In this document: piece after piece, positions 24,288 to 52,207 of the stretch
How positions within the stretch are numbered: the stretch's first letter is position 1
Layout of the letters: every line of letters begins with the position of its first letter
IMG/VR virus record: IMGVR_UViG_3300042924_005627
Span: 1-62,567 of that record
Direction: 5' to 3' (one strand)
DNA length: 62,567 nucleotides
DNA from: a virus
Taxonomy: Duplodnaviria > Caudoviricetes
The notes under the pieces: model-generated
Databases searched by the model: none
The model's input: only the letters and a program-made list of their open reading frames with translations
What the model was told of the DNA's origin: nothing
Translations under genes and position numbers: made by a program

Positions 24288-24884
24288 ATGATACACAAAT
24301 TATTTCCAACAATCGTAACACAAGACTCTTTAAAAGATCAAATAACCGAAAAAGAAATTGAGTATTTAAAATCATTCAATGATATGATTAAATCTCATGG
24401 AAATTTTATTTCTTTAGAAAAGAGGATATTAGACGATCAGAATCTTTTAAGTTTAAAAAAGAAATTTGAACACAAACTAAAAAATTATTTGGACACGGTT
24501 TATGAACCTTCAGATGAAGTAGAGATATACATTACTCAGTCTTGGACAAATGTGACTATTCCCCAAGGATGGCATCATCAACACAATCACCCAAATAGTT
24601 TTTTAAGTGCTGTGTTTTATATTCAGGTTGATGAAGGGGATGAAATTACATTTTATAATGACATTTATAAACAAATATCGTTCAATAGTAAAAATTATCA
24701 CGAGTATAATTCCACAGAATGGACACTTAAGGTTAATAATTTTGACTTGTTAATATTTCCTTCATCCCTGTCTCATGGAGTTAGAAAAACTTCAGAAAAT
24801 TCTGTCAGAATTAGTTTAGCTTTTAATAGTTTTATACGAGGTAAAATAGGGAATGAATATGCCTCTTATGGGTTGAGTCTATAA
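24288..24884 (+). CDS. putative 2OG-Fe(II) oxygenase (HxH type)
   Basis: SW.N...HNHPNS.LSAVFY...IFPS.L.HGV...RISLAFN. Confidence 0.85.
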   Translation: MIHKLFPTIVTQDSLKDQITEKEIEYLKSFNDMIKSHGNFISLEKRILDDQNLLSLKKKFEHKLKNYLDTVYEPSDEVEIYITQSWTNVTIPQGWHHQHNHPNSFLSAVFYIQVDEGDEITFYNDIYKQISFNSKNYHEYNSTEWTLKVNNFDLLIFPSSLSHGVRKTSENSVRISLAFNSFIRGKIGNEYASYGLSL

Positions 24885-24889
24885 AGAAC

Positions 24890-24918
24890 TTGACATTGAA
24901 CAATAGATACCTTATAAT
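24890..24918 (+). promoter_or_regulatory. consensus sigma70 promoter
   Basis: TTGACA-17-TATAAT. Confidence 0.8.
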
Positions 24919-24941: not shown

Positions 24942-25139
24942 ATGGAATATAAACCCTATTCTCCAGAATGGAATCGTAAAAGATACCTTAGAGAAGCACT
25001 TGAAACTTACTTCAATGATTATGTTGATATTGGTGTAATTTATGATGATCTCATGACCATTCTTCATGAGAGATCTGAACAGGCTTATAGTGAATTTTCT
25101 AGAATTAATGAGTTGGAATCAAAACTTAATCAATCTTAA
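24942..25139 (+). CDS. hypothetical protein
   Basis: MEYKPYSPEWNRKRYL...; ATG downstream of promoter. Confidence 0.7.
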   Translation: MEYKPYSPEWNRKRYLREALETYFNDYVDIGVIYDDLMTILHERSEQAYSEFSRINELESKLNQS

Positions 25140-25142
25140 TTT

Positions 25143-25158
25143 TGTATCTGATGTTACA
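25143..25158. promoter_or_regulatory. NtcA-binding site
   Basis: TGTA-TCTGATGT-TACA is a perfect TGTA-N8-TACA; intergenic; just upstream of a -35 box. Confidence 0.7.
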
Positions 25159-25165
25159 AAATTGT

Positions 25166-25195
25166 TTGACTATATAGGATGAATAGGGGTATAAT
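25166..25195 (+). promoter_or_regulatory. sigma70-type promoter of the glutamine-aptamer cassette
   Basis: TTGACT-18-TATAAT; predicted start about 25202, just before the aptamer P1 strand. Confidence 0.6.
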
Positions 25196-25205
25196 AATCC
25201 CCTAA

Positions 25206-25459
25206 CGTTCATCCTATGACTAAAGCACTTTTGCTTTTAGCATGGGTTCCACTTCTTTCTATTTCTACGCCACAACTTGCACAAACTAATAAAGTTACAA
25301 TAAGTTGCGACGCAGCGTGGGAACTTATGGACATCGTTAAAAACGACGATGTAGTAGACCAAAGAAAAGAAGACCGATTGCTATTAGAACTCCGAAAGGA
25401 TGTTTTGAAACTTAAGTGCTAAACAATTCAATAGGACGGAAGTAAGCCGACTCGGAACG
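25206..25459 (+). ncRNA. glutamine riboswitch-like aptamer 1 (glnA-like) with a CDS in the P2 loop
   Basis: P1 CGTTC(25206)/GAACG(25455); P2 TCCTAT(25212)/ATAGGA(25431); then CGGAAGTAAG-CCGA-CT. Confidence 0.6.
25216..25422 (+). CDS. small two-Cys protein with signal peptide, nested in aptamer 1
   Basis: MTKALLLLAWVPLLSIS.. then ISCDAA...LKC. Confidence 0.65.
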   Translation: MTKALLLLAWVPLLSISTPQLAQTNKVTISCDAAWELMDIVKNDDVVDQRKEDRLLLELRKDVLKLKC

Positions 25460-25462
25460 GAT

Positions 25463-25631
25463 CGTTCATCTATGGAAACACTCATTCTAACGTGCTTACA
25501 AGCACAGTTAATTTCTGGAAGAGTTCATCAACAAGAACTCCCTAGACAAGCAAAGAATGATTTAATTTGGGAGATTAAACAAATCTCACCAAAAGAGTGT
25601 AAGATAGACGCAAAAGCCGACTGAAGGAACG
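25463..25631 (+). ncRNA. glutamine riboswitch-like aptamer 2 (Downstream-peptide/glutamine-II-like) with a CDS in the P2 loop
   Basis: P1 CGTTC(25463)/GAACG(25627); P2 TCTAT(25469)/ATAGA(25604); CGCAAAAGCCGACTGAAGGAACG; directly upstream of a YRG peptide. Confidence 0.7.
25472..25624 (+). CDS. small two-Cys protein (50 aa) nested in aptamer 2
   Basis: Hand-translated METLILTCLQAQLISGRVHQQELPRQAKNDLIWEIKQISPKECKIDAKAD. Confidence 0.6.
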   Translation: METLILTCLQAQLISGRVHQQELPRQAKNDLIWEIKQISPKECKIDAKAD

Positions 25632-25663
25632 CTCTTTAACCTAAACAACTAAGGAGAACCCTA

Positions 25664-25828
25664 ATGTCTAAAGTCGTATACCGTGGTGTTGAATATGACA
25701 CCAACGACCGCCCAAATCAAACTTTGAAAAGAGAACCTCATGTAGAAATCTATCGTGGAACAATGTTCTGGGTAGATGAAAATGGAAACAAATTCTCTAT
25801 GGAAAAGTCGGGAGGTAAAGTAAAATGA
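25664..25828 (+). CDS. DUF4278-like YRG peptide (54 aa)
   Basis: MSKVVYRGVEYDT...IYRGT (two YRG motifs); AAGGAG RBS. Confidence 0.8.
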   Translation: MSKVVYRGVEYDTNDRPNQTLKREPHVEIYRGTMFWVDENGNKFSMEKSGGKVK

Positions 25829-25926
25829 ATACTTACTTCGTTCGTTATCTCAAGAAAAAAGCAAAGAAAGAAAAACTTCTTAAAGCTGCACAACTTAATA
25901 TGGCAAAGCAACCACAAATTGCTTGA
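25825..25926 (+). CDS. small basic peptide (33 aa)
   Basis: MNTYFVRYLKKKAKKEKLLKAAQLNMAKQPQIA; GGAGGT RBS; ATGA overlap. Confidence 0.6.
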   Translation: MNTYFVRYLKKKAKKEKLLKAAQLNMAKQPQIA

Positions 25927-25932
25927 AGTAAA

Positions 25933-25957
25933 GGAGGGTTTACACCCTCTTTTTTTT
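25933..25957 (+). terminator. rho-independent terminator
   Basis: GGAGGGT-TTAC-ACCCTCT followed by a T run. Confidence 0.8.
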
Positions 25958-25988
25958 GTAGTAAAATAGTAAGAGACTATGAATAATC

Positions 25989-26167: not shown

Positions 26168-26800
26168 ATGACTGTACGACTTATTTCGATTACTCCCGAT
26201 GCAGAACAAACAATGGCGTATATTGCGCGAGTTTCTAATCCTGCGAATCAAGACAACGAAAACTATGCCAAGTTGCTTGCTTATTGTATTAAGCATAATC
26301 ATTGGTCTGTTTTTGAACAGTCTTCTATGACCCTTGAGATTGAAACGAATCGTGGTATCGCGGCTCAAATTTTGCGCCACCGCTCGTTTACATTCCAGGA
26401 ATTTTCTCAACGGTATGCAGACACCAATCTACTGAGTACTGATATCCCGTTGCCGGAACTGCGTAGGCAGGACACTAAGAACCGCCAGAACTCGATTGAT
26501 GACTTGGATGAGGAAAGGGTCTTTGTGATGAATAAGATGATTCAAGACCTCTTCAAGGACTCTCAGGATGTCTATAACTATCTTCTGGAACAAGGTGTTG
26601 CTAAGGAATGTGCTCGTTTTGTGCTTCCCCTGGCTACGCCTACACGAATCTATATGACAGGCTCTTGTCGTTCTTGGATTCATTATATCAATCTTCGTTC
26701 TGCACACGGAACTCAAAAAGAACATATGGATATTGCACTTGCTTGCAAAGAAGTATTCAAACAACAATTCCCTTCAGTTGCAGAAGCTCTGGAGTGGTGA
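26168..26800 (+). CDS. thyX: flavin-dependent thymidylate synthase
   Basis: HWSVFE, QILRHRSFTFQEFSQRY (RHRX7S motif), AR.VLP, TQKEH. Confidence 0.97.
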   Translation: MTVRLISITPDAEQTMAYIARVSNPANQDNENYAKLLAYCIKHNHWSVFEQSSMTLEIETNRGIAAQILRHRSFTFQEFSQRYADTNLLSTDIPLPELRRQDTKNRQNSIDDLDEERVFVMNKMIQDLFKDSQDVYNYLLEQGVAKECARFVLPLATPTRIYMTGSCRSWIHYINLRSAHGTQKEHMDIALACKEVFKQQFPSVAEALEW

Positions 26801-51950: not shown

Positions 51951-52022
51951 GGGACTGTCGCCTATTGGTTAAGGCCCACTGCTTATAACGGTGTGAATGG
52001 AGTTCAATTCTCCACAGTCCTA
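51951..52022 (+). tRNA. tRNA-Ile(UAU)
   Basis: GGGACTG/CAGTCCT acceptor; CACTG-CTTATAA-CGGTG anticodon arm; TGGAG-TTCAATT-CTCCA T arm. Confidence 0.88.
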
Positions 52023-52027
52023 CCTAA

Positions 52028-52112
52028 GGGAGCGTGACGTAATTGGTAGCCGTATCGGACTTAAAATCCGCTGGATGTATAATCCGTGGGGGTTCGACTC
52101 CCCCCGCTCCTA
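52028..52112 (+). tRNA. tRNA-Leu(UAA)
   Basis: GGGAGCG/CGCTCCT acceptor; CGGA-CTTAAAA-TCCG; long variable arm; GGGGG-TTCGACT-CCCCC. Confidence 0.92.
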
Positions 52113-52135
52113 TCAGTATACATAGTATACTAGTT

Positions 52136-52207
52136 GCCCTTGTAGCTCAGTGGTAGAGCAACGGTTTTGTAAACCGTTGGTCGCTGGTTCAAATCCAGTC
52201 GGGGGCT
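52136..52207 (+). tRNA. tRNA-Thr(UGU)
   Basis: GCCCTTG/CGGGGGC acceptor; TAGCTCAGTGGTAGAGC D arm; ACGGT-TTTGTAA-ACCGT; GCTGG-TTCAAAT-CCAGT. Confidence 0.93.

Follow-up and report, generated by a model that had tools for sequence, protein, structure and literature searches.

A probable nitrogen-status operon of cyanomyoviruses with genes nested in two candidate glutamine aptamers

In the leader of gifB of Synechocystis, a glutamine-I riboswitch (Rfam family RF01739) has been shown to act as a translational ON switch (Klahn 2018, PMC6212724), and such a switch has been proposed for the glutamine-II riboswitches (PMC6698751). According to the accessible parts of the former report, host gifB and an IF17-like gene of Prochlorococcus combine NtcA control with a glutamine riboswitch. 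Earlier publications likewise cover the glutamine riboswitches of cyanophages, aptamers in tandem, DUF4278 proteins as outputs and NtcA sites in phages. The stretch of DNA analyzed here in its entirety (hereafter, the window) is the 62,567-nucleotide (nt) IMG/VR virus record IMGVR_UViG_3300042924_005627, a piece of a T4-like cyanophage with the nearest BLAST records in Kyanoviridae. Its positions 25143–25957 hold what is probably a conserved cyanomyovirus nitrogen-status operon, in which genes are nested in both aptamers of a tandem glutamine riboswitch and glutamine would exert reciprocal control. The original prediction, made for this region from the DNA letters, was that the phage reads two nitrogen signals of the host through a cassette of an NtcA box, glutamine aptamers and small peptides, an interpretation that is partly supported overall. 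What the window adds is a case in which both aptamers carry nested genes, together with the conserved box of the NtcA type, the reading of a 33-amino-acid (aa) peptide as a detached protein module and the RNA cover over the operon. A literature search found no paper on open reading frames (ORFs) inside a riboswitch aptamer; two supplements (Klahn 2018 Table S1, S-CREM1 Table S7) may list relevant loci.

The operon resembles the gifB leader in the P1 strands, core and tandem order of the aptamers, as well as in the DUF4278 gene downstream and the Shine-Dalgarno sequence (SD) sequestered behind the aptamer; for the host, NtcA control of gifB is reported. The predicted pairing of NtcA with a glutamine switch repeats one that the available text of PMC6212724 describes for host gifB. 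In the estuarine phage S-CREM1 (OP535465; PMC9964418), the elements succeed one another as they do here, from GTA-N8-TAC and the promoter through aptamer 1, the 3-nt linker and aptamer 2 to the anti-SD, the SD, the YRG gene and the terminator. S-CREM1 differs in having no nested genes, in the distance between the box and aptamer 1 (25 nt, compared with 49 nt in the window) and in the fusion of the YRG peptide and the basic helix into a single 48-aa protein. Its GenBank record annotates a glnA riboswitch at the homologous place, and its compact tandem aptamers score 33.5 bits (aptamer 2) and 20.4 bits against RF01739.

In the window, the two aptamers are expanded to 254 nt (aptamer 1, 25206–25459) and approximately 170 nt (aptamer 2, 25463–25632), with the 3-nt linker GAU (25460–25462) between them; these elements, along with the promoter, the inverted repeat around its -10 hexamer, the four ORFs, the expression platform and the terminator described below, lie on the plus strand. 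Aptamer 1 has the layout CGUUCA-UCCUAU (25206–25217), 213 nt, AUAGGA-CGGAAGUAAGCCGACUCGGAACG (25431–25459), where P1 is formed by CGUUC (25206–25210) and GAACG (25455–25459), the 6-bp inner helix by UCCUAU (25212–25217) and AUAGGA (25431–25436), and the core, ACGGAAGUAAGCCGACUC, occupies 25436–25453. The layout of aptamer 2 is CGUUCA-UCUAU (25463–25473), 130 nt, AUAGA-CGCAAAAGCCGACUGAAGGAACG (25604–25631), with P1 formed by CGUUC (25463–25467) and GAACG (25627–25631), a 5-bp inner helix formed by UCUAU (25469–25473) and AUAGA (25604–25608), and a core, ACGCAAAAGCCGACUGAAG, that begins at 25608. Both aptamers display the organization of RF01739: the CGUUC/GAACG P1 encloses the aptamer, the inner hairpin starts directly after CGUUCA and closes on the A of the ACGGAA core, and the family core ACGGAAGUA...GAAGGAACG is represented by ACGGAAGUAAGCCGACUCGGAACG in aptamer 1 and ACGCAAAAGCCGACUGAAGGAACG in aptamer 2. 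The halves of the aptamers match those of aptamers 1 and 2 of S-CREM1, in the same order and base for base in the cores, and the core variants are identical to those of the Rfam-scored S-CREM1 aptamers. In contrast to RF01739, where the aptamer takes up about 40–55 nt, each inner hairpin here contains a complete gene, the start codons lie in the helix, one gene is partly dual-coded with the core, and the covariance model is blind to the result. The small third hairpin of the family is not evident either; S-CREM1 aptamer 1 aligns there with gaps and non-standard pairs. Judging from the nucleotide sequence, the two aptamers are real but not contiguous, so that the predicted glutamine aptamers are indeed present, as a pair of the glutamine-I type, but split by genes.

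The prevalence of this layout was assessed in two samples. The first came from a scan of viral contigs for the aptamer junction, which yielded at least 119 loci and, with four GenBank phages and the window, 124; the riboswitch core is present in 87 of these 124, the remainder being chance matches or cut loci. The second sample, from a scan anchored on the aptamer 1 core, comprises 97 loci absent from the first. The 14-base junction pattern was uninformative on host genomes: among the matches listed for genome contigs, 0 of 120 were true junctions. The aptamer lengths are bimodal, either 38–58 nt or 166–254 nt. Of the 82 loci of the first sample in which both aptamers were measured, 23 have two compact aptamers; the expansion is confined to aptamer 2 in 38 and to aptamer 1 in 9, and it affects both in 12, including the window. 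The respective numbers in the second sample are 37, 26, 10 and 14. Loci with at least one expanded aptamer thus number 59 of the 82 and, in the second sample, 50 of the 87 that were fully measured. The linker is mostly 3 nt long (GAT, GAA, GGA) among 119 loci. The isolate P-SSM4 carries both aptamers in the expanded form, with the nested ORFs annotated as hypothetical (PSSM4_169.2 and PSSM4_169.3).

Tandem ‘pseudo-cooperative' glutamine riboswitches, in which two aptamers for the same ligand precede one output gene as they do here, are known from a survey that counted 157 doublets (Sherlock 2022, PMC9481103). Within the portion of that report that is available, the survey took only pairs without an intervening ORF and dropped gaps longer than 300 nt, so that it would have broken up or overlooked the expanded forms.

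In expanded aptamer 1, the inner helix is at least 5 bp long in 16 of 23 copies, and in expanded aptamer 2 with a recognizable core, it is at least 4 bp long in 50 of 55 copies, compared with mostly 0–2 bp in shifted controls. Among 34 unique sequences of aptamer 2, pairs 2, 3 and 4 of the inner helix are canonical 34, 33 and 30 times, respectively, whereas shuffling of the partners gives means of 27.7, 18.6 and 16.5 and maxima of 31, 26 and 25; kinship inflates this test, though several distinct versions of the helix take part. Thus, as read from the alignments, the closing helix is kept and covaries across the insert. The same data bear on a different fold, in which the strands are swapped: the halves that meet at the junction would form a local, circularly permuted sensor, and the outer halves (25206–25217 and 25604–25631) would make up a second sensor that encloses everything. 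This fold could also be the ligand-free conformer. It gains from the minimum free energy (MFE) structure, which forms the junction hairpin 25455–25459/25463–25467, from the nearly constant 3-nt linker and from the conservation of the junction, the most conserved BLAST stretch shared by the window and its relatives (90–96% identity to P-SSM2, P-SSM4 and S-PM2). It loses on the inner helix itself, where the pairing within an aptamer is longer than the swapped pairing in 74 of 82 loci, equal in 7 and shorter in 1, and on the outer pair that it requires, which is only 2 bp long in the window. On balance, the strand-swapped arrangement is unlikely.

The inserts themselves are the other pillar of the nested reading. 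Nested gene 1 (25216–25422, 68 aa) lies inside the inner hairpin of aptamer 1, and nested gene 2 (25472–25624, 50 aa) inside that of aptamer 2; in each, the A and U of the AUG belong to the 5' strand of the inner helix. The last codons of nested gene 2 (IDAKAD) and its UGA stop are, at the same time, bases of the 3' core of the aptamer. An ORF of at least 40 aa is present in all 74 expanded aptamers of the true loci, and in 25 of 25 and 42 of 43 of those in the second sample. Across the stretch that each nested ORF occupies, the five remaining frames lack stops in 0, 0, 1, 9 and 0 of the 74. Counted from the first C of CGTTCA, the nested ATG comes after 9–11 nt in 73 of 74, and 45 of the 52 ORFs in aptamer 2 terminate within the 3' half of the aptamer. 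In four nested families, differences are most frequent at codon position 3 and least frequent at position 2 (157/107/203 for positions 1/2/3 in the gene 1 family and 2111/1163/3049 in the gene 2 family), and the indels are whole codons. All 74 nested peptides contain exactly two cysteines. The product of nested gene 1 consists of a hydrophobic N-terminus, which by its sequence looks like a signal peptide, followed by Cys31-helix-turn-helix-Cys68, and that of nested gene 2 of Cys8-helix-turn-helix-Cys43. The AlphaFold2 models of both are helical hairpins bounded by the cysteines, with helices 31–42 and 49–63 for the first (mean predicted local distance difference test score, pLDDT, of 68, with the hydrophobic N-terminus poorly modelled) and helices 8–20 and 25–38 for the second (pLDDT 83.8). 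The nested ORFs are, then, real genes for two-cysteine helical-hairpin micro-proteins.

Relatives of the nested peptides match phrog_504, phrog_6471 and phrog_13397, all of unknown function. A profile of the ORF2 type retrieves 338 cluster representatives at E≤0.001, and the ORF2 family is homologous to the phrog_504-like peptides (hhalign probability 97.6, E 2.9e-12). The comparisons of the ORF1 family with the phrog_6471-like set (E 0.0025, probability 11.8) and with the ORF2 family (E 0.037) are too weak to claim homology; ORF1 and the phrog_6471-like set have only the Cys-x36-Cys layout in common. For the small proteins, nothing usable came from NCBIfam, PDB sequence searches, profile searches or the ESM Atlas, and none was assigned to a named fold or family. 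Foldseek searches with the ORF2 model produced no PDB match at E≤0.001 and returned only uncharacterized cyanophage proteins from BFVD. NblA was considered as an identity for the helical hairpins and rejected: no NblA family was found in Pfam at E≤1 for 14 nested peptides, and no NblA fold appears among 13 PDB and the first 50 BFVD Foldseek matches.

Several results weigh against the nested reading. Three Rfam scans of the window found no glutamine riboswitch at the gathering score or at E≤10, the RF01739 gathering score being 35 bits; the miss is attributable to the inserts of 130–220 nt that split the aptamers, and the identity of the aptamers therefore rests on the comparison of their halves with S-CREM1. 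The window's two nested peptides have no PHROG match at E≤0.01. RNAalifold analysis of 17 close relatives detected no covarying RNA structure inside the aptamer 2 insert; the long-range P1 is recovered in 17 of 17 aptamer 2 relatives, all of them invariant, and the P1 strands barely vary among the 119 loci, so that P1 partners are not assignable by covariation. The MFE fold of 25202–25670 contains no aptamers: besides the junction hairpin, it has the SD of the YRG gene occupied by the 5' strand of aptamer 1. That pairing joins 25207–25215 (GUUC.UCCU) and 25652–25659 (AGGAGAAC), about 440 nt apart, and could be either chance or a second anti-SD. The side-by-side fold lies only 3.9 kcal/mol above the MFE.

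The absence of a covariance-model match, the predicted local competing hairpins and the loops of 130–220 nt, which make long-range folding kinetically hard, would all be expected if the aptamer halves were relics, with sensing destroyed by the insertions and the halves persisting as coding, translation or processing signals; the operon would then be an ordinary four-gene early or middle transcript. Such decay fits poorly with an inner helix that covaries (pair 3 canonical in 33 of 34, compared with a shuffled maximum of 26), with the conservation of the non-coding CGUUCA 5' strand and of the aptamer 1 core outside ORF1, and with the nearly invariant ATG register. Furthermore, the same peptide family sits in aptamer 1 of some phages and in aptamer 2 of others, always with that register. 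The relic explanation therefore appears highly doubtful.

Under the nested reading, which we prefer, nitrogen sensing and translation would be expected to compete on a single mRNA, each aptamer being folded around a gene. By analogy with host gifB, glutamine binding would lock the aptamers and free the SD of the YRG gene, making an ON switch. Folding of the aptamers would also bury the start codons of the nested genes, and, conversely, ribosomes on the nested genes would have to unfold the aptamers. Low glutamine would then favor synthesis of the nested proteins, and high glutamine that of the YRG and basic peptides; we infer such reciprocal control, with glutamine activating YRG and silencing the nested genes. 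NtcA with 2-oxoglutarate would set the level of transcription, and the output peptides may act on nitrogen assimilation. In its strongest form, the operon would be a toggle made of one RNA, with ligand binding picking between two protein sets and NtcA/2-oxoglutarate gating the transcript, a tentative proposal that we consider somewhat improbable as it stands.

The expression platform (25632–25656) follows aptamer 2 directly, and in it the anti-SD CUCUUUA (25632–25638) pairs with UAAGGAG (25650–25656). The local fold is a 7-bp anti-SD/SD hairpin with an unexceptional energy (-7.3 kcal/mol, z -0.25). In 14 of 65 loci, GGAACG is likewise followed by a CTCTT-type stretch and an SD, and in other loci, inspected by eye, CCUAAA pairs with UUUAGG at the same place. 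The hairpin fits a translational ON switch like that of gifB.

The gene behind the platform (25664–25828) encodes a DUF4278-like peptide of 54 aa with two YRG motifs, which matches phrog_5049 (1.3e-9). Against Pfam DUF4278 (PF14105, the N-terminal domain of IF17), it scores 20.3 bits (E 7.3e-4), below the cut-off of 25.3, over profile positions 2–32 of 57. Among homologous phage YRG peptides, DUF4278 matches 37 of 39 at E≤0.01, with the best value of 1.8e-13, and a YRG peptide is encoded in all 65 loci with a readable downstream ORF. The predicted link to DUF4278 thus holds for the family, with the window's own peptide scoring under the Pfam cut-off, and this peptide is best called a divergent DUF4278 relative. 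The Lys-rich basic helix peptide of 33 aa (25825–25926) starts at an ATG that overlaps the TGA stop of the YRG gene (ATGA). In hhalign comparisons, it is similar to the N-terminal module of fused YRG proteins (probability 95, E 4e-8) and to the C-terminal half of the S-CREM1 YRG protein (probability 96.7, E 3.6e-10); the homologous basic helix is fused at the N-terminus of YRG peptides in many phages and at the C-terminus in S-CREM1. On these alignments, the 33-aa peptide is a detached, translationally coupled module of YRG proteins and, being fused to YRG peptides elsewhere, belongs functionally with the YRG peptide. Searches in NCBIfam, among PDB sequences and in the Atlas returned nothing for it, and a profile of fused YRG proteins retrieves 1700 proteins at E≤0.01, with only unnamed or ‘hypothetical' ones among the 120 matches listed, which lead to neither IF7 nor IF17. 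The likeness to IF7 put forward for this peptide in the original prediction, on size and charge, and an action on glutamine synthetase are conjectural. Complex prediction for the YRG and 33-aa peptides (score 0.02, mark 0.32) speaks neither for nor against binding. In many phages (for example, at loci L005, L023, L026 and L042), the ORF after YRG encodes a hydrophobic, membrane-like peptide of about 28–34 aa rather than the basic helix. The original prediction counted four proteins of at most 68 aa; all four ORFs are present, but two of them are encoded inside the aptamers, not simply downstream. An intrinsic terminator (25930–25960; stem 25930–25953 of 10 pairs, 4 of them G-C, a loop of 4 and a T run) closes the operon, so that the unit is, as had been proposed, self-contained from a promoter to a strong terminator, both being present in the sequence.

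At the other end, an NtcA-type palindrome TGTA-N8-TACA, TGTATCTGATGTTACA, occupies 25143–25158, with GTA at 25144–25146 and TAC at 25155–25157, that is, the GTA-N8-TAC palindrome of NtcA promoters at 25144–25157. Direct reading of the sequence confirms that it ends 7 nt before TTGACT-18-TATAAT. The weight of the box comes from its conservation in related phages, not from its rarity in the window. An exact GTA-N8-TAC within 120 nt upstream of aptamer 1 was found in 66 of the 90 loci first examined, in 59 of 77 when only true loci are counted, and in 79 of 81 loci of the second sample, against about 3.5% expected from the background rate in the loci first examined; the absence of such conservation had been named in advance as a reason to abandon the idea. 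In the main class (49/77 and 51/81 loci), TAC lies 40–49 nt before CGTTCA and 6–8 nt upstream of TTGAC, and in a minority class (7/77 and 18/81), the box is 25–31 nt before the aptamer, over the promoter core. The position matrix retains T-GTA-(T/A)C...TAC-A, i.e. GTA/TAC and the flanking T and A, with a variable inner N8; the full TGTA-N8-TACA is present in 42 of 77 loci. In P-SSM4 (L366), a perfect TGTA-N8-TACA (about 373–388) stands directly before aptamer 1, after CATAAATA and without TTGACT.

Two properties of the box count on the negative side. Taken alone, a single box is not significant: the window holds 3 copies of TGTA-N8-TACA where 1.45 are expected, a count reached in 20 of 100 shuffles. 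Its center lies at about -51.5 from the presumed start near 25202, ahead of an intact -35. In the available text of PMC6212724, NtcA activates from sites that overlap the -35 and represses from sites on or close to the -10 or the start, so that the box occupies neither standard place and the direction of control, activation or repression, is not assigned. This atypical position would suit a site for another dimeric factor, either of the phage or of the CRP family, or an upstream element of the promoter, as would a second, sequence-variable palindrome over the -10, which itself matches GTA-N8-TAC, 6 nt before aptamer 1, in 7 loci and likewise in P-SSM4. Several features set the NtcA interpretation above these options: the conserved positions with a variable center agree with the NtcA consensus GTA-N8-TAC (PMC6212724, PMC3037559), NtcA sites accompany the glutamine riboswitches of host IF17-like genes (PMC6212724), and NtcA sites in cyanomyoviruses were predicted earlier (Sullivan 2010, PMC3037559), all as far as the accessible portions of these papers go. 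A role other than NtcA binding therefore seems rather improbable. The same partially available literature shares with our reading the GTA-N8-TAC by the promoter of a DUF4278 gene (gifA, gifB, the Prochlorococcus IF17-like gene and the cyanomyovirus predictions) and the idea that phages exploit host NtcA and 2-oxoglutarate; it differs in the location of the box, which is here upstream of an intact -35, and does not, in those portions, draw the link to a riboswitch operon. As for the window at large, GTA-N8-TAC occurs 19 times compared with 10.5 expected, a number reached in 2 of 100 shuffles, and the other two TGTA-N8-TACA sites (18901 and 36335), inspected by eye, have no promoter-like context and look intragenic.

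The promoter of the operon, TTGACT-18-TATAAT (25166–25195), is of the sigma-70 type, with TTGACT at 25166–25171, TATAAT at 25190–25195 and 11/12 in the promoter scan; promoter-like sites are not enriched in the region (8, compared with the shuffle mean of 10.4). Its first 11 nt (25166–25176), TTGACTATATA, hold TAWATA right after TTGAC. The two elements are equally conserved in the position matrix of 48 unique contexts, and TTGACTAWATA occurs exactly once in the window. The likeness of TAWATA to the cyanomyovirus late promoter NATAAATA, for which overlapping early and late promoters are reported in the consulted part of PMC2984593, suggests overlapping early and late promoters here as well. Around the -10 hexamer lies an inverted repeat, GGATGAATAGGGG / CCCCTAACGTTCATCC (25177–25214), whose outer arm doubles as the 5' strand of aptamer 1. 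Among 79 loci, 64 have a perfect stem of at least 5 bp that ends within 6 nt of CGTTCA, compared with 205 of 1580 shuffles (13%), and the palindrome is variable in sequence, with 39 distinct arms. It could be a 5' RNA hairpin only if there is a second transcription start upstream.

Transcription probably begins near 25202, which is 4 nt ahead of aptamer 1 and 7 nt past the -10. Contigs of four metatranscriptome runs, from four studies, cover 25172–25953 with summed depths from tens to thousands, compared with only 0–12 over 300 nt on either side of the operon, and the cover drops to 0 past 25953 in all four runs. Contigs connect ORF2 with the YRG gene, and the latter with the terminator. Set against this, only one adapter-carrying contig end abuts 25202, and the contigs sum relatives and show neither the transcript ends nor the strand. 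The RNA cover is a weak but consistent hint at an abundant discrete RNA. Contigs that skip 25470–25607 or 25217–25428 carry other short letters there; these contigs without nested genes represent co-occurring relatives with compact aptamers, not spliced forms.

Coding sequence within a structured RNA, and competition of translation with RNA folding, have precedents in group I introns, which harbor homing-endonuclease genes in peripheral loops, and in leader-peptide attenuators. Here, in contrast, the RNA is a metabolite-sensing aptamer, and the products are conserved micro-proteins rather than mobility enzymes or sensor peptides. Aptamers are usually viewed as compact non-coding domains, and surveys discard candidates with ORFs between the parts; the expanded layout is common, and standard scans under-count the viral glutamine riboswitches. 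The nested layout is a natural test case for the interplay of the ribosome with ligand-dependent RNA folding, and it ties three abundant, unnamed families of cyanophage micro-proteins, beside an NtcA-type box, to the nitrogen status of the host. It also opens to experiment an old proposal, namely that cyanomyoviruses sense 2-oxoglutarate and NtcA of the host, and adds glutamine as a second input. If true, the toggle would be a new riboswitch mode, in which a sensor that harbors coding sequence switches translation reciprocally and a virus reads both host nitrogen signals.

The operon is flanked by a 2OG-Fe(II) oxygenase gene (24288–24884) on one side and thyX (26168–26800) on the other. Between the oxygenase gene and the box, a 65-aa ORF (24942–25139) that matches phrog_1461 (1.1e-30) is preceded by a perfect promoter, TTGACA-17-TATAAT (12/12, 24890–24918). 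No terminator was found between this ORF and the box, so that read-through into the operon is possible. Elsewhere in the window there are four tRNA genes, at 1650–1720 and 51951–52207, three of which are clustered.

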